A stretch of 64,000 nucleotides of DNA from an uncultured bacterium (GTDB lineage Bacteria; UBA8481): the NCBI GenBank assembly GCA_964499705.1, contig CAZCME010000004.1, forward strand, positions 62,001-126,000, written 5' to 3'. Under the pieces are notes generated by a model. It ran no database searches and had not been told where the DNA came from. It saw only the letters and a list, made by a program, of their open reading frames with translations. Shown in pieces: positions 5 to 4,383 of this stretch (its first letter is position 1; the number at the start of each line of letters is the position of its first letter). Position numbers and translations under genes: made by a program.

Positions 5-931
5 TCAGTCCGCTCCGAAAACCCGCATCAGCCGTTCCCGGGTCTGCGGAAACTGAAAAAACGTCGATCGTCGGCGGGAGCCCAGAGTCCAGGTCCACAT
101 TCCTCGCGGAACCGCGGCATCATGTTCGATCGAGAAAGGAAATGCGTCTCCGGGAGAAACCGGCATGGAATCGACGGGAAAGAGCGTCCGGAACCAATGC
201 TGTCCGGACCACGCTTCATCGGGTTTCTCCTCCAGGACAACGCCGGGCGAAAGCCGGGCCGACCACCAGGCAAGAACAGCGTTGCATTCGCCGGATCGAT
301 CGGCCACCAGCGTGCAGGATCCGGAAAACCGGTCGCCCGTCGCCGTCATGAGATCGATCTCCGGCAGCGAGGACCCGGGGCCGAGCAGCATCGACGGCTT
401 GAGATAATCGGGAAACGTGTAATGCTCCATGCATTCCGCCAGCGCGGAAAAATCGAAACCGTACCGCTTCTCTCGCCAGAAAGCCGCTGCCTTGGCGACC
501 GGTACCGAATTCACGAGCGCCACGCGAAGTTGGACGGCCGACGGAATAACGATTCCTTCCTGCTTCAAGAATCGGCGCGCCGATTCCATGACGGAGATGA
601 TTTTCTCGTCCAGGAGCATATTGCCGATCATTTCACAGACGATCGTATCGACGGGTTCGATGGCGGACGGATCCAGCTTCCTGATGTCGTCGTGAATGAA
701 CCGGACATTCGATCCGTTTTTCCTCGCGACGGCGCGCGCATAATCGATCATGTCGCCCGCCTCCACGGCGACCACGTCGGCGCCAAGACGCTCCGCCGCC
801 AGGGCGAGAATGCCGGTGCCCGTACCCACGTCGAGAACGCGGCTGCCGGGCCGCACGCGTTGCTTCAGCGCGGCGAGAAAGGCGTTCGTTCGCACCTCGT
901 CGCTCAGCAGGGCGGCATGATATTCAAGCAT
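5..931 (-). CDS. Protein arginine N-methyltransferase (PRMT)-like SAM-dependent methyltransferase
   Basis: HAALLSDEVRT resembles the PRMT N-terminal helix HEEMLKDEVRT; motif I VLDVGTGTG; double-E loop CEMIGNMLLDE with 9-residue spacing; THW-like loop QHWFRTLF. Confidence 0.85.
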   Translation of the reverse strand: MLEYHAALLSDEVRTNAFLAALKQRVRPGSRVLDVGTGTGILALAAERLGADVVAVEAGDMIDYARAVARKNGSNVRFIHDDIRKLDPSAIEPVDTIVCEMIGNMLLDEKIISVMESARRFLKQEGIVIPSAVQLRVALVNSVPVAKAAAFWREKRYGFDFSALAECMEHYTFPDYLKPSMLLGPGSSLPEIDLMTATGDRFSGSCTLVADRSGECNAVLAWWSARLSPGVVLEEKPDEAWSGQHWFRTLFPVDSMPVSPGDAFPFSIEHDAAVPRGMWTWTLGSRRRSTFFQFPQTRERLMRVFGAD

Positions 932-949
932 GAGGATGAAGAAAGATGA

Positions 950-1147
950 TCAGGGCATAAGCCAGGGAGGGATGTCCATCGGCGCCGAAGCGCCTCCGCA
1001 TCGCCCACTCTGGCAATTGATCGAGCTCCGCGTTCCGCTCGGCTGCTGATACGTCTCGATCCCCGTGTAGGGAAGCTTGTACCGGGTCAAATGCGGCTTG
1101 AGATAGGCCTTGCCCTTGTTCTCGTGGCAGCTCTCCGTCTTTTTCAT
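950..1147 (-). CDS. Putative RiPP precursor peptide (65 aa)
   Basis: ATG at 1147 overlaps the rSAM stop (ATGA) and has a GAGGT Shine-Dalgarno upstream; leader carries YLKPHL (YxxPxL RRE-binding motif); C-terminal part rich in S/G/C/R/P; lies between rSAM and methyltransferase. Confidence 0.8.
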   Translation of the reverse strand: MKKTESCHENKGKAYLKPHLTRYKLPYTGIETYQQPSGTRSSINCQSGRCGGASAPMDIPPWLMP

Positions 1148-2205
1148 GCGGCACCTCGGATGAAGACTCCGTTTATGATGTCGTCGCGACCGAGCCAAGC
1201 GGCGGTCACTTCGCAATGATGCGGAGCGGGGCGGTCATAATGCCCCGTCTCCTGAACAAACTGACCCATGCAACGGTAGCGGCACGAGGAAAGCATCGAG
1301 CACGATTTGCACGTGGAGATCTCCGTGCCTTTCTGCATCCGGATTTCATTCAACCTCCGCGAATTTCTCCAGACGTGCCGGAACGGAGTGTGCCGGATAT
1401 TGCCGACCGATTCGGGAACCTGCGAGCAGGGATACAAGTCCCCCAGCGGACCCACCGCGAACCTGCTCCACCCCATGTTGCACATCTCCGGATGATCCTC
1501 GTCGATGCAGGATGAAAATTCCGGGCGGCCCGTCCATTCCGTATAGCGACTCTCGCACTCCCGGATCTCGGCGGGCGTCAGGCGGTCCGCGAGAAACCCG
1601 TCGTTGCCGGAAACGAAACGGGGCGTGATGTGATACGATGGTGCGAAGATGGCGCCGGCTTCTTCGCAGAGCCTTCCCAGCTCCGTGATCGAATCGAAGT
1701 TCGTCCTCATAACCGACATCTTGACGATCGTCTTGATGCCGGCATCGACCGAAAGTTTCACCTTGGGAAACGCCCGCGCGAATGCTCCGGGCATCTTCAC
1801 GAACCGGTCATGCGATGCTCCCACTCCATGAATCGAAAAATGCAGCTCCTGGATTTCCTGCGACACGAGATATTCGATGTCCTCCTCGGAGAGGACCGTC
1901 CCGTTCTGAAATATCTCATACCGGAATCTCAAGCGGCAGGCTTCGCGGACAATCTCCCGCCAGCCGCGGTGAACAAGCGGTTCCCCGCCGCTGAACGTGA
2001 GCTGAAACGTGCCTTCATTCCGGATTTCATTCAGGATGCGGATCCACTCATCCGTCGACATCTCCCCACCCACGGGCAGACCGATGCGATAGCAGTGAAC
2101 GCATTCCAGGTTGCACTTTTCCGTGAGATGGAGATGGGCCATATGGGGAACGGCTTTCCGTTCGAGCTTGCTGAACAATTCCTCGCGCGACATTTCGACG
2201 ATCAT
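1144..2205 (-). CDS. Radical SAM/SPASM domain protein (peptide maturase-like)
   Basis: CNLECVHC (CxxxCxxC); FSGGEP; SPASM cysteines CNMG...GDLYPC...CKSC-x5-C-x3-C...HHC. Confidence 0.92.
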   Translation of the reverse strand: MIVEMSREELFSKLERKAVPHMAHLHLTEKCNLECVHCYRIGLPVGGEMSTDEWIRILNEIRNEGTFQLTFSGGEPLVHRGWREIVREACRLRFRYEIFQNGTVLSEEDIEYLVSQEIQELHFSIHGVGASHDRFVKMPGAFARAFPKVKLSVDAGIKTIVKMSVMRTNFDSITELGRLCEEAGAIFAPSYHITPRFVSGNDGFLADRLTPAEIRECESRYTEWTGRPEFSSCIDEDHPEMCNMGWSRFAVGPLGDLYPCSQVPESVGNIRHTPFRHVWRNSRRLNEIRMQKGTEISTCKSCSMLSSCRYRCMGQFVQETGHYDRPAPHHCEVTAAWLGRDDIINGVFIRGAA

Positions 2206-2498
2206 GCGGCTTCCGACCGATCGGATGGAGGAGAGGCCAGCAGGAGCTCTTCCCGCACGAGGTCGGCGAAGAGTTCATCCAGATCGGCCGCCGCCGTTTC
2301 GCGCGAAACATCGTATTCCGCCACGATCAGGTCGATCAGCTCCGATCTCGGGAGAGGTTTCTGTTCCATGGAGCGCCAGATGAAGGATCCGACCGGATCA
2401 AGCGAATAGTAAGTGGTGGTCTTGATCCGCAGAATCACGACCTCCCCGTCGATCACTCTCCAGGCGAGTTCCGGATTCAGGCTGAACAGGGGATCCAT
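2202..2498 (-). CDS. PqqD family RiPP recognition element (RRE)
   Basis: 98 aa; WRVIDGEVVIL, YYSLDPVGSFIW, EYDVSRETAAADLDELFADL; ATGA-coupled to the rSAM gene. Confidence 0.92.
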   Translation of the reverse strand: MDPLFSLNPELAWRVIDGEVVILRIKTTTYYSLDPVGSFIWRSMEQKPLPRSELIDLIVAEYDVSRETAAADLDELFADLVREELLLASPPSDRSEAA

Positions 2499-2619: not shown

Positions 2620-2705
2620 GCCGGAGTGGCGGAATGGCAGACGCGGCGGACTCAAAATCCGTTAGGAGCAATCCTGTGTGGGTTCAACTCCCACCTCCGG
2701 CACCA
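2620..2705 (+). tRNA. tRNA-Leu (CAA)
   Basis: Acceptor stem GCCGGAG/CTCCGGC, anticodon arm GCGGA-CT-CAA-AA-TCCGT, long variable arm, GGTTCAACTCC T-loop, encoded CCA. Confidence 0.95.
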
Positions 2706-4383
2706 TCCCCATGATCGCCCGCCGAAAACTCGCATGCCCGTTCATTCCCAGCACGCTCTCGCGCTCCGACGGTCCCGACTTCGTCAGAATGATCCGGAGC
2801 ATCTCGCTCATTTCGACGGCGGGCCAGGCCGCCAAATCCGGAATACAGGCGAGGAGCAGACACAGCTCATCCGCAAGTTCGTTTCGCGGTATCCTTCCTC
2901 CCAGAGCTCCCGCGACATGCTCGCGCGCCGACAGGATCGCATCGGTCCGATCTCCCTGGTGAGCGGCGATCGACGATGTGACGATCATTCCCGCTTTGGC
3001 ATAACGGAAATTTCCGAGGACGGCCCGATTTTCCTCTCCGAGATGGAAATAAAGATTCTCCGTCGCGAACAGTTTAAGAGTGCGGGCATCCGAGCGCGAA
3101 CCGGGTCGGGATTTCAAGCGCTTCGCTTCGGCTTCGACCTTCGCCCGCATTTTCGCGCCGAACGGGCGGAAGCCGAGCTTGTGGTAGAACCAGAACGCGC
3201 CGGACTTGATCGCCTCGTCGTTTTCATGGCCGAACTGGTATTTCATGACGGAAAAGGAAAGGGCTCCGGTGTGATGGTGGATGACCCGCAGAAGCGCGGC
3301 ATAGGTCAGCGCCGCTTCGCCGTGCCGAAAGGAGTCGAAGATGTTGAACGCGATCTCGGAGGACTCGAAGAGGCAGCTGAAACAGCCGTAACCGACGGGA
3401 ATTCCATTCTTCAGCAGGAGATATCCCCACAATCCCTCAAGGATCATCCGCCGTTCAGGAAGAACTCCATACGTCACGATCTCCAGGCCGCGATCGAGCG
3501 CATAGACCATCACATCCGAGGGATTCGCATGCGAGATCGGATAGATCTCCCTTTCGCGCGCGGCGAGCGACGCGCGGGCCACGCGGATGAGAAAGAGAGC
3601 TTCCTCCCTGGTCTCCGCGGAGGGCCTGTCCAGCGGTCTCCCGATTTCCATGCGCAGATCGGCGACACCCCGCTGCAACGGCGCCTCATGATGGAATACA
3701 TGCGCCCTCTCCGCATACGCACTCGTCTTCGAAAGTCCGGGCTGGTCCAATCGAAGGACCAGAGGTAGCTCCATCGAATCAAAAAGATGATCCCGGAGGC
3801 GTGGAGACAGATTCAATTCCCTGATCCTGTCGATGAGCCAGACCAGCGTGTTCCTATTCCCCGCCGCCAGCCGCATCCAGTCCTCGGTCGAGATCTCCTC
3901 GTCCTCGAGGCCGGGTTCCTCGGCCAGACCCGAAAGCAGCGGGAGCAGCTTCTGAAGCGCTTCTGTCTCACATTCTTTCCAGTCGATTTCGACCTGCCCG
4001 GGGCAGGCGGAACGCAACCAGGCCGCCATGGGAAATTCAAAGGCATACTCGATGACCGTGCCGGCAATGCCGGAGCTCTTCATCGCGCGGGCAAGTCGCT
4101 CGTCGATCCGGTGAGGAAACGATTTCAGTTGCTGAAGGGCAAGACGGTGAATGTCCCCGTTGTCGGGAAAGGCGGCCATGTAAAGAAGCAGATCGTGATA
4201 GCGTATGAAAAGGCGCGCGCGCGACGATTGCCTGCCTGCAAACGAAGCGGCGGACAGGGCTGCCAGAAGTTCCAGCTTGAGCGCCGCGGATTCCGAGGTG
4301 CGTTCTCTCCGCAAATCCTCCAGCTTCCGGAGATGTCTTGCCGCGAGCCTGCCGATGCGCGCGACGGAGAGAGGGGGGGGCAC
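2662..4383 (-). CDS. Uncharacterised protein with a probable C-terminal GNAT-like domain
   Basis: 573-aa ORF downstream of nadA; KNGIPVGYG and AFWFYHKLGF resemble GNAT motifs; 3' end overlaps tRNA-Leu antisense. Confidence 0.65.
   Translation of the reverse strand: MPPPLSVARIGRLAARHLRKLEDLRRERTSESAALKLELLAALSAASFAGRQSSRARLFIRYHDLLLYMAAFPDNGDIHRLALQQLKSFPHRIDERLARAMKSSGIAGTVIEYAFEFPMAAWLRSACPGQVEIDWKECETEALQKLLPLLSGLAEEPGLEDEEISTEDWMRLAAGNRNTLVWLIDRIRELNLSPRLRDHLFDSMELPLVLRLDQPGLSKTSAYAERAHVFHHEAPLQRGVADLRMEIGRPLDRPSAETREEALFLIRVARASLAAREREIYPISHANPSDVMVYALDRGLEIVTYGVLPERRMILEGLWGYLLLKNGIPVGYGCFSCLFESSEIAFNIFDSFRHGEAALTYAALLRVIHHHTGALSFSVMKYQFGHENDEAIKSGAFWFYHKLGFRPFGAKMRAKVEAEAKRLKSRPGSRSDARTLKLFATENLYFHLGEENRAVLGNFRYAKAGMIVTSSIAAHQGDRTDAILSAREHVAGALGGRIPRNELADELCLLLACIPDLAAWPAVEMSEMLRIILTKSGPSERESVLGMNGHASFRRAIMGMVPEVGVEPTQDCS

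Follow-up and report, generated by a model that had tools for sequence, protein, structure and literature searches.

Gene organization at the left end of the window

The window, a stretch of 64,000 nucleotides, carries at its left end four co-oriented genes on the minus strand, encoding a stand-alone PqqD-family protein, a radical SAM (rSAM)/SPASM enzyme, a small peptide and a methyltransferase (Table 1). All four ORFs lie where the original prediction had placed them. The plus strand reads tcat at both 2202-2205 and 1144-1147; the coding strand accordingly has ATGA there, and at each of these junctions the start codon overlaps the stop codon of the preceding gene. An 18-nt gap (932-949) separates the peptide's stop codon (950-952) from the methyltransferase's start codon (929-931). 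Scanning for promoters and terminators returned sites no more commonly than in shuffled sequence.

Table 1. Positions in the window of the four genes and of features within them.
Feature	Position	Strand	Basis or remark
Stand-alone PqqD-family RRE (lasso B1 type), 98 aa	2202..2498	-	Pfam PqqD PF05402; stop overlaps rSAM start (ATGA)
Radical SAM/SPASM enzyme, 353 aa, without fused RRE	1144..2205	-	Pfam; stop overlaps precursor start (ATGA)
CxxxCxxC radical-SAM cluster motif (C31, C35, C38)	2092..2115	-	Ortholog alignment
SPASM region, eight invariant Cys (C233, C242, C260, C299, C302, C308, C312, C331)	1213..1509	-	Ortholog alignment
Type-1 precursor peptide, 65 aa + stop	950..1147	-	ORF
Leader recognition motif Y15-x-x-P18-x-L20 (Y15-L-K-P18-H-L20)	1088..1105	-	Precursor alignment
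Predicted leader, residues 1-31	1055..1147	-	Tyr(-17)/Pro(-14)/Leu(-12) rule
Predicted core, residues 32-65	953..1054	-	Same cleavage rule
Invariant Cys pair C45...C50	998..1015	-	Precursor alignments; codons verified on DNA
PRMT-fold SAM-dependent methyltransferase, 308 aa	5..931	-	Pfam, PDB alignment, structural neighbours
Methyltransferase double-E loop (E100...E109)	605..634	-	Alignment to 6cu3

The PqqD protein scores 64.1 bits against its Pfam family (cut-off 23.4) and 47.2 bits, under the cut-off of 80, against the lasso_PqqD_Bac model. When a profile of six orthologs was compared with the PDB, all four matches were lasso B1 proteins (TbiB1, 5v1u, E 1.3e-16). The peptide belongs to no Pfam or NCBIfam family; it has 11 homologs in a set of 5.8 billion proteins, and a set of 1.84 billion representatives yielded 18 matches, 15 of which are small peptides. 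Nine residues are invariant among 13 precursor homologs, and all 13 carry the leader motif [YW]xxPx[LIVM], in agreement with the [Y/W]xxPx[L/V/I/F/A] motif that discrete lasso RREs bind according to PMC13381572. A structural model of the RRE with the leader, a check proposed along with the original prediction, lent weak support to this pairing, scoring 0.47 against 0.01 for the best of three controls. In a benchmark of the procedure, 58 of 80 solved complexes and two of 110 mismatched pairs reached the mark; at scores of 0.60 or less it was reached by only seven of the 80 complexes and by both passing mismatches. At least 90% of the contacts agreed between runs, with a partner pLDDT of 50-52. 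The pass may reflect only a likeness to complexes that have already been solved. Taken with the rSAM/SPASM enzyme and a genuine PRMT-fold methyltransferase (see below), the stand-alone RRE and the conserved precursor with its lasso-type motif bear out the assignment of the locus to a RiPP-type system.

A leader protease and a kinase beyond the window

The cluster had been expected to continue left of position 1, and it does. A B2 leader protease gene and an HprK/PEPCK-fold kinase gene lie there, convergent to the four-gene set, with the facing stop codons 5 nt apart. The view that the locus has no peptidase had to be abandoned, since this lasso-type protease sits just outside the window; that it has no transporter holds for the module after the leftward extension as well. 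The B2 protein scores 52.7 bits against NF033537 (cut-off 33), a model matched by four of four orthologs, and its catalytic Cys-His-Asp residues (C71, H105 and D117) are invariant in the ortholog alignment; its profile found no sequence match in the PDB. The kinase has a Walker A motif and a GDD motif, both invariant in orthologs, and its predicted structure (pLDDT 86.6) matches PEP carboxykinases (E 2e-8). Its scores against HprK models are weak (20-28 bits against NCBIfam cut-offs of 125-240; 20.5 against 33.3 in Pfam). The presence of these two genes beside the four-gene set points to a lasso machinery in which the cyclase has been replaced, rather than to a free-standing rSAM cluster.

An rSAM ortholog is found in all five species genomes examined of the small uncultured phylum, and the entire six-gene module in the four whose contigs reach far enough, the window's own genome (G000) included; the six genes are syntenic in the other three (G002, G003 and G004). 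The fifth genome (G001) and a metagenome contig (L017) show all the genes for which the length of the contig leaves room, and a further contig (L120) has B2 and the kinase at its end. Besides the window's own genome, four species genomes and a single metagenome contig repeat the order of the four genes, at protein identities of 40-73%. Only 12 rSAM orthologs (59-83% identity) were found among 5.8 billion proteins, the next matches being at most 32% identical. With the rSAM sequence alone as query, the genome collection yielded only two distant relatives (24% identity), and of six loci returned by a metagenome scan with the rSAM alignment one was a new orthologous locus (L017). Orthologs of the kinase were likewise recovered by alignment scan in records of the same group only (four loci). 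For nine of the 12 rSAM orthologs from metagenomes, a contig equal in length to that of a peptide homolog suggests, indirectly, that the two genes lie on one and the same contig. With its recurrent order and conserved precursor, the four-gene arrangement is, on sequence grounds, more than a chance association.

In the window's genome, the flanks of the locus (12 kb leftward, 6 kb rightward) contain no Asn-synthase-like lasso cyclase, and there is none in the other three complete loci, in which all module genes are accounted for. Closure of the lasso macrolactam ring needs Asp or Glu at core position 7, 8 or 9; none of the 13 predicted cores has either residue at positions 7-9, a count that depends on the predicted cleavage site. 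Both results weigh against an ordinary lasso cluster with its cyclase encoded elsewhere in the genome. B1, B2, kinase and YxxPxL leader are all of lasso type, and the window's genome does contain eight matches to the Asn-synthase family (PF00733); every one is on another contig, however, and none adjoins the genome's other PqqD or transglutaminase-core matches. The rSAM gene is moreover translationally coupled to the precursor gene and to that of the RRE. We take a cyclase working from another locus to be highly improbable and already disfavoured.

We consider it probable that the six genes form a RiPP-type module descended from phosphorylated-lasso machinery, with the rSAM/SPASM enzyme in the place of the cyclase; its chemistry and the role of its product are predictions. 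The phosphorylated lasso clusters (paeninodin type; bsf of Bradymonas sediminis) share with it the B1 RRE, B2, an HprK-like kinase and the YxxPxL leader. Unlike them, the module has no cyclase, nucleotidyltransferase, ABC exporter or ring Asp/Glu, and it has the rSAM/SPASM and PRMT-fold enzymes. The experimentally studied bsf system comprises kinase, B1 and B2, with Ile at position -2 of BsfA (PMC10368454), where the module's precursors have Ile or Val; B1 is described as also aiding the kinase in such systems (PMC10368454; PMC8498205). If the proposed descent is true, the lasso proteins for leader recognition and leader removal constitute a portable unit that evolution has joined to radical-SAM chemistry. 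The literature searched contained no description of the module, and to that extent its combination of rSAM and PRMT-type enzymes is uncharacterised, as originally claimed; supplements of the RRE-Finder and Bsf papers, which lay outside the search, could list related clusters. The theme has more company than the claim implied, in view of PRMT-folds in lasso clusters (see below) and of the approximately 300 lasso-model RREs that adjoin rSAM enzymes according to RRE-Finder (PMC7470986).

The four complete loci encode neither an exporter nor an immunity gene. Their neighbours are housekeeping genes (TrmB, SecDF, tRNA-Leu, NadA, LeuB), and no additional gene is conserved beside the six. With no exporter encoded, the product may act in the cell or exit by a general route; these features, together with conservation throughout the phylum, are more in keeping with a role inside the cell than with an antibiotic that is secreted. 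If this is true, a whole uncultured phylum keeps a modified peptide without an export gene, suggesting a physiological role and not one in warfare.

The radical-SAM enzyme and the predicted core

The rSAM enzyme scores 64.1 bits against Radical_SAM and 43.4 bits against SPASM in Pfam. Across 13 orthologs, one of them represented by a fragment, its CxxxCxxC motif is almost unchanged and the eight Cys residues of the SPASM region are invariant, with the spacing CX2CX5CX3C at residues 299-312 and G-x4-C at 255-260, as read from the sequence. In NCBIfam all models stay under their cut-offs, with AhbD (126 bits), ScmE (111) and MftC (94) scoring highest. The MftC model matches residues 24-328 with 93.7 bits against a cut-off of 265, and the PqqE model gives 92 bits against 381. 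Scores for heme, PQQ, mycofactocin and sactipeptide models are about equal (91-126 bits) and all far under their cut-offs, so that the chemistry is not fixed by similarity. Among PDB entries the rSAM profile is closest to SkfB (6efn, E 1.4e-30), followed by CteB (E 7e-17) and then PqqE and SuiB; the epimerase YydG is among the weak matches (E ~8e-6). SkfB and CteB, sactipeptide and ranthipeptide maturases, are thus the closest solved relatives, and Cys-bearing cores are common to their systems and the present one. These two enzymes carry a fused N-terminal RRE, whereas the module has a separate, lasso-type RRE, and thioether formation is here only predicted.

To locate the leader cleavage site we relied on the spacing Tyr(-17)/Pro(-14)/Leu(-12) given in PMC10368454, a prediction by rule only, which puts Ile or Val at position -2 in 13 of 13 precursors. 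An alignment of 21 precursors shows no variation at Y33, C45, C50, P60 and W62 of the predicted core, the last two forming a P-x-W tail, and Ser or Thr is present at core position 6 in all 13 homologs. An anSME-type Cys-x-Pro-x-Arg motif was considered and rejected, as it is missing from the cores.

Through its B1-type PqqD protein the module would bind the leader motif [Y/W]xxPx[L/I/V] and hand the peptide to the translationally coupled, RRE-less rSAM/SPASM enzyme. The latter would install at least one crosslink in the 34-37-aa core; thioethers from the two invariant Cys residues seem likeliest, and crosslinking through the invariant Tyr or Trp is an alternative. The HprK/PEPCK-fold kinase may phosphorylate a hydroxyl residue, for which the conserved Ser/Thr-Gly at core positions 6-7 is the candidate, and the B2 Cys-His-Asp protease would cut the leader off after the Ile/Val(-2) site. 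The module's parts are small and soluble-looking, making the pathway directly testable by co-expression and mass spectrometry.

It is conceivable that the product is instead a housekeeping molecule, for instance a peptide-derived cofactor, of the kind that PQQ and mycofactocin represent, and that it is kept in the cell, with rSAM and PqqD modifying a conserved aromatic residue or Cys. PqqD/PqqE and MftB/MftC likewise pair a stand-alone PqqD-family RRE with an RRE-less rSAM/SPASM enzyme and a small co-encoded precursor, and the module's discrete proteins and overlapping genes resemble them. The invariant Tyr and Trp, the rSAM ortholog in five of five genomes of the phylum, the four complete loci with housekeeping neighbours and neither exporter nor immunity gene, and a second precursor gene in the pdxA-ksgA operon (see below) would also suit such a product. 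Yet the MftC and PqqE scores fall far under the cut-offs, and no PqqB/C-like or MftD/E/F-like gene, nor any other downstream cofactor-processing enzyme, was recognised in the module. Its lasso-type leader, B2 and kinase, all foreign to the PQQ and mycofactocin systems as is the PRMT, and the long core of 34-37 aa, conserved and bearing a Cys pair, are features of a peptide product, and we regard a cofactor as rather unlikely. The SynChlorMet cassette (ScmC/ScmD/ScmE/ScmF) also combines HprK-like, PqqD-like and rSAM/SPASM proteins; the module's three proteins match it weakly, with scores far under the cut-offs (ScmC 25.1 against 125, ScmD 20.4 against 100 and ScmE 110.9 against 400 bits), and the literature search turned up no publication on this cassette.

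A crosslinked product is itself a matter of inference. The rSAM enzyme could carry out chemistry that makes no crosslink, such as epimerisation or Cys/Ser oxidation, and the Cys pair could form a disulfide; the peptide, phosphorylated and methylated, would then be in essence linear. The linear polyphosphorylated peptides (LPPs; Popov et al., Nat Commun 2026) offer a precedent: they are described as non-lasso RiPPs with a lasso-type RRE, a Y-x-x-P leader and an HprK-like kinase, made without a cyclase as linear phosphorylated peptides (PMC13381572). The C-x4-5-C spacing would suit a small disulfide loop, and an epimerase is found among the weak PDB matches. Against this, the nearest solved relatives of the enzyme are thioether synthases and the full Cys set for two auxiliary clusters is conserved in the SPASM region, making a linear product quite unlikely. 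The LPP systems themselves feature an SpI-type leader peptidase, an NTP transferase as well as an MsbA-like exporter (PMC13381572), all three absent from the module, which uses B2, the rSAM and the PRMT-fold enzyme; the main text of that report names neither an rSAM enzyme nor a methyltransferase.

The methyltransferase and an unlinked RG-rich precursor

The methyltransferase scores 52.8 bits against PrmA and 40.5 bits against PRMT_C (cut-off 27). Its top PDB match, with residues 5-266 aligned, is 6cu3 (E 3.9e-26), and the best-scoring matches are all PRMTs; structural neighbours in the Atlas have TM scores of 0.84-0.89. The double-E loop aligns to that of 6cu3, E100 and E109 being invariant in six of six orthologs, and the position of the THW loop reads QHW in five orthologs and QSW in the sixth. 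An N-terminal helix motif, motif I, the double-E loop, the THW-like QHW and a C-terminal beta-barrel are common to this enzyme and the type I PRMTs (PRMT1/3/6/8). It differs from these in being bacterial, in its length of 308 aa and in being encoded in a peptide-maturation operon, with a ribosomal peptide precursor as its RG-rich candidate substrate.

That candidate is not the adjacent peptide. The N-methylated product originally envisaged found no support there, as only four of 13 homologs have Arg in the predicted core and the precursor as a whole is without a conserved Arg. Arg(-10) of the 'TRY' sequence was considered as methyl acceptor and rejected, the residue being Lys in three of 13 precursors. 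Peptide homologs, however, occur twice per genome in five of five genomes, the second paralog (type 2) being unlinked to the module. This paralog shares the leader motif, with the spacing shifted by one residue and Pro at position -2 in three of five, and contains an RGRGRG stretch, with at least three Arg residues in RG context in all five. Its gene sits in the pdxA-ksgA operon. The intact double-E loop and the RG-rich paralog together suggest a candidate Arg target: it is plausible, judging from the sequences, that the RGRGRG stretch is a conserved substrate of the methyltransferase. What links the two is motif logic; their genes are on different contigs. The PRMT-fold enzyme, through its guanidinium-binding double-E loop, would then methylate Arg, with the RGRGRG of the second precursor as the best candidate. 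If so, PRMT-fold arginine methylation would join the known modifications of ribosomal peptides and a bacterial PRMT homolog would gain a concrete, testable peptide substrate.

More speculatively, the whole might be a two-locus, two-precursor system in which the module processes the RGRGRG precursor besides its own, the latter being acidic or neutral. It would be the first case of a RiPP pathway using a PRMT-type enzyme, with the double-E loop intact, to methylate Arg of a Gly-Arg-rich core, and the pathway's products would be cell-internal, perhaps switched by phosphorylation and dephosphorylation, rather than antibiotics. We hold this extended reading to be possible but doubtful.

In other phyla, PRMT-fold methyltransferases were also found inside two lasso clusters of canonical make-up (L040 and L049). 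Both lack the Glu pair of the double-E loop, with Asp/Asp in its place in L040 and Tyr/Arg in L049, so that PRMT-fold enzymes in such clusters need not be arginine methyltransferases. Among the 80 loci listed, of 272 confirmed PRMT relatives, lasso-type neighbours occur at two, and the module's rSAM or peptide gene at none; the neighbours were sought by tblastn and with HMMs built from our own alignments, whose narrowness may have let remote PqqD or B2 proteins escape. As a separate observation, a mini radical-SAM protein of 175-187 aa and a protein whose predicted fold is PP2C-like are encoded beside the type-2 precursor.

Gene content, borders and conservation of the module

The original prediction placed four co-oriented genes at the left end of the window. 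All four are present on the minus strand, and inspection of the sequence confirms both ATGA overlaps as well as the 18-nt gap. They encode a PqqD protein (a B1-type RRE), an rSAM/SPASM protein, a 65-aa peptide (the type-1 precursor), whose ATG has a GAGG sequence a few bases to its 5' side, and a methyltransferase. In NCBIfam, the RRE, the rSAM protein and the methyltransferase all score below the cut-off of every model. On its right the operon is bordered by a plus-strand tRNA-Leu(CAA) gene. The end of a 573-aa ORF lies 44 nt inside this tRNA gene; no relatives of the ORF were found in the syntenic loci of other genomes.

Coordinates of the features (numbers without a prefix are window positions; C4, C10 and C32 are contigs of the source genome, G000; L-numbers are loci)
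Feature	Location	Strand	Evidence or content
PqqD	2202-2498	-	Pfam PqqD 64.1 bits
rSAM/SPASM	1144-2205	-	Pfam Radical_SAM 64.1, SPASM 43.4 bits
Type-1 precursor, 65 aa, MKKTESCHENKGKAYLKPHLTRYKLPYTGIETYQQPSGTRSSINCQSGRCGGASAPMDIPPWLMP	950-1147	-	ORF; matches nothing in NCBIfam
Methyltransferase, 308 aa	5-931	-	Pfam PrmA 52.8, PRMT_C 40.5 bits (cut-off 27)
Lasso B2 protein, 142 aa	C4:60648-61076	+	NF033537 52.7 bits (cut-off 33), Transglut_core3 50.8 bits
P-loop protein (HprK-like kinase), 308 aa	C4:61073-61999	+	Weak HprK-family matches
tRNA-Leu(CAA)	2620-2705	+	
573-aa ORF	2662-4383	-	No Pfam family
Type-2 precursor, MSNSIPHLGAKKAKSYSKPALVRYRPVETSPMEYTISSGTPNSAKCANNPPGCRGRGRGMIAPPPWG	C32:4581-4781 (inside L141, C32:4005-5397)		Profile match
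Lasso cluster, Candidatus Binatia MAG	L040:4331-11385		HprK-like kinase, 2OG oxygenase, PRMT-fold enzyme, NTP_transf_5, PqqD, Asn synthase, B2
Candidate precursor in L040	L040:10695-10901		YHSPHL, Thr(-2)
Lasso cluster, Longimicrobiales MAG	L049:1-9452		B2, Asn synthase, sulfotransferase, HprK-like kinase, ABC transporter, PRMT-fold enzyme, NTP_transf_5, PPK2
Cassette of G011 (another phylum)	L122:7337-10061		rSAM, HprK-like gene, PqqD gene
Cassette of the source genome	C10:63545-66517 (L127:6545-9517)		Two tandem rSAM/SPASM genes, divergent HprK-like gene

The suspicion that the cluster continues left of the window was borne out: the adjoining sequence (C4:50001-65000, locus L002) contains two plus-strand genes that converge on the methyltransferase gene, the facing stops being 5 nt apart. 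One of them encodes a lasso-type B2 protein, contrary to the earlier statement that no peptidase was visible. Four of four B2 orthologs match NF033537 and keep C71, H105 and D117. The product of the other gene is a P-loop protein whose matches to HprK_rel_A (28.1 bits), HprK_rel_B (25.4 bits), ScmC (25.1 bits) and Pfam Hpr_kinase_C (20.5 bits; cut-off 33.3) all fall under the cut-off. PEP carboxykinases, which belong with HPr kinase to one fold superfamily, are structural matches of its AlphaFold model (pLDDT 86.6; E 2e-8, TM about 0.55), and the aligned orthologs keep GxSGxGK[ST] and GDD. Phosphorylation of the peptide would be the task of this putative kinase, with Ser37 of the window's precursor as the predicted site. 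TrmB lies next to this pair of genes; neither an Asn-synthase-like cyclase nor a transporter was found within 12 kb on the left side of the module.

Orthologs of the rSAM protein occur in all five species genomes of the phylum examined. Among 41 related genomes they are confined to four of the same family or order (48-66% identity, E <=1e-120), and a set of 5.8 billion proteins yielded only 12 (59-83% identity), the next matches reaching at most 32%. Synteny, established by tblastn and ORF matching, extends to the entire module, with PqqD, rSAM, peptide and PRMT genes and the convergent kinase-B2 pair, in three of the other genomes (G002, G003 and G004). In G001 and on metagenome contig L017 every module gene is present up to the contig ends, while L120 carries B2 and the kinase at a contig end. 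TrmB adjoins the module in G000, G002 and G003. The other flank varies by genome, comprising tRNA-Leu and the 573-aa ORF, SecDF, a sulfatase or an O-antigen-ligase-like protein. No transporter recurs in the flanks of the compared loci.

The type-1 precursor, its predicted leader and the rSAM enzyme

A profile search of the 5.8-billion-protein set recovered 11 precursor peptides among 166 candidates. An exhaustive search of 1.84 billion representatives gave 18 matches at E <=0.001, including 15 small peptides and one 293-aa gene call ending in the peptide; two long repeat proteins and a 455-aa protein were set aside. Residues P18, Y23, Y33, Q34, C45, C50, P60, W62 and P65 are invariant in 13 close homologs, and Y33, C45, C50, P60 and W62 remain so in a 21-sequence alignment from which the near-duplicates P0044 and the L013 row, as well as P0058, P0059, P0065 and P0066, had been left out.

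All 13 type-1 precursors contain [YW]xxPx[LIVM]. The lasso leader rule sets Tyr at -17, Pro at -14 and Leu at -12 (PMC10368454); applied to the window's peptide, it predicts that the leader ends after residue 31. Cores delimited in this way are 34-37 aa long, with Ile or Val at -2 and Ser or Thr at position 6 in every homolog (13/13). In the Bsf lasso system, which includes a kinase, Ile(-2) is the variant that experiments have validated, and Ile or Val at -2 is regarded by the authors as recurrent in phosphorylated lasso peptides (PMC10368454). Asp or Glu at predicted core positions 7-9 is found in none of the 13 homologs; therefore, a lasso macrolactam cannot form in the usual way.

Searched against the PDB, the PqqD profile gave four matches, all of them lasso B1 proteins (best TbiB1, E 1.3e-16). 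A modelled complex of PqqD with the precursor scored 0.47, against 0.01 for the best of three controls, and at least 90% of the contacts are shared between its runs, with a partner pLDDT of 50-52. Of 80 solved complexes, 58 reach the mark applied to such models, as do 2 of 110 mismatches; at scores of 0.60 or less, those that pass are only 7 of the 80 solved complexes together with both passing mismatches. The model hints that PqqD may bind the precursor leader; since B1-leader complexes have already been solved, its passing may reflect likeness only.

The rSAM protein has a CxxxCxxC motif and eight Cys in the SPASM region that are invariant among orthologs. It carries no fused RRE, as the cluster motif begins at residue 31. 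SkfB is the closest match in the PDB (E 1.4e-30), followed by CteB, PqqE and SuiB. The NCBIfam models AhbD, NirJ, ScmE, GeoRSP, MftC, StsB, PqqE and SkfB all score within 91-126 bits, so similarity does not settle the chemistry of the enzyme; crosslinking is the proposed reaction. More distant relatives (27-33% identity) lie beside PqqD or HprK-like genes in four of eight loci examined. In G011, which belongs to another phylum, a related three-gene cassette consists of an rSAM gene (33% identity to that of the window), then an HprK-like gene and a PqqD gene. A further cassette in the source genome, on contig C10, is placed between a polysaccharide-export gene and argC; the highest-scoring model for it, ScmE, gives 118 bits against a cut-off of 400.

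Relation to described systems

Among described systems, phosphorylated lasso peptides and linear polyphosphorylated peptides (LPP) come closest. In the latter, a lasso RRE and a kinase have been recruited to a cyclase-less pathway; the main text describing them mentions neither an rSAM enzyme nor a methyltransferase, whereas the module has both (PMC13381572). The RRE-Finder study noted about 300 RREs of the lasso model next to rSAM enzymes, which it regarded as false lasso-peptide positives (PMC7470986). According to a 2023 review, the transglutaminase-like protease is a peculiarity of lasso peptides (PMC10885120). The module belongs to none of the lasso, LPP, PQQ, mycofactocin and SynChlorMet families, since for each of them it falls short of a defining feature that was tested. 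In the literature, supplements aside, we found no description of a system combining B1/B2 with rSAM and PRMT, nor any account of the SynChlorMet cassette or of RiPP arginine methylation.

The methyltransferase and the type-2 precursor

The best-scoring PDB matches of the methyltransferase are all PRMTs (6cu3, E 3.9e-26), L11 methyltransferase appearing in the same list only at E 9e-12. When the protein is aligned to PRMTs, E100 and E109, which are invariant in six orthologs, coincide with the double-E pair, and QHW falls on the THW loop. Methyltransferases with PRMT_C form bacterial clusters of 50-624 members in several phyla, so this phylum is not alone in having the fold. A scan of the genome collection with the methyltransferase alignment confirmed 272 relatives, 80 of which are listed (19 of these match over at least 250 residues). 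Among the 80, at least two lie inside canonical lasso clusters (L040 and L049); enzymes with the PRMT fold thus occur together with lasso machinery. These two are extended at the C-terminus by about 70 residues and have lost the Glu pair, which is replaced by Asp/Asp in L040 and by Tyr/Arg in L049. By comparison, the phylum's enzyme is the one that still resembles an arginine methyltransferase. L040 also contains a candidate precursor; in the L049 cluster the precursor was not located.

If arginine is methylated, the type-1 peptide offers little constancy, with Arg in the predicted core of only 4 of 13 homologs and at no conserved position. A 21-sequence profile search of the five genomes found exactly two precursor matches in each, the second copy lying on a different contig from the module. 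The leader motif is retained in this type-2 precursor, as are the Tyr, the PPPW tail and the Cys pair. The G000 copy contains an RGRGRG stretch, and in all five genomes the peptide has at least three Arg in RG context directly after the second Cys, the run being longer in G004 (KRGRGGGRGR). PRMTs have their classical substrate motif in Gly-Arg-rich RG/RGG repeats. Because such repeats are conserved in the type-2 paralog (5/5), it appears to be the best conserved candidate target of the methyltransferase. Among public sequences, the RG-rich type-2 precursors fall into a subgroup of their own (the metagenomic or MAG records P0060, P0061 and P0067); one cluster has five members, and one member is seen on 14 contigs.

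The type-2 flanking genes are shared by four of the five genomes. In G000-G003 the order is pdxA, ksgA, a mini radical-SAM gene, the type-2 precursor, a gene for a 194-272-aa protein, an M23 peptidase and a FapA-like gene; the context differs in G004, where tblastn found no mini radical-SAM gene. The mini radical-SAM protein measures 175-187 aa in G000, G001 and G002 (187 aa in G000); the ORF called in G003 is longer, at 234 aa. The protein carries CxxxCxxC, scores 32.9 bits against Radical_SAM in locus L129, and is 24% identical to the module's rSAM over 75 residues. The 194-272-aa protein (194 aa in G000; model pLDDT 75.6) weakly resembles PP2C-type phosphatases, RsbX (E 9e-4, TM 0.56) being its best and, at E <=0.001, its sole structural match.
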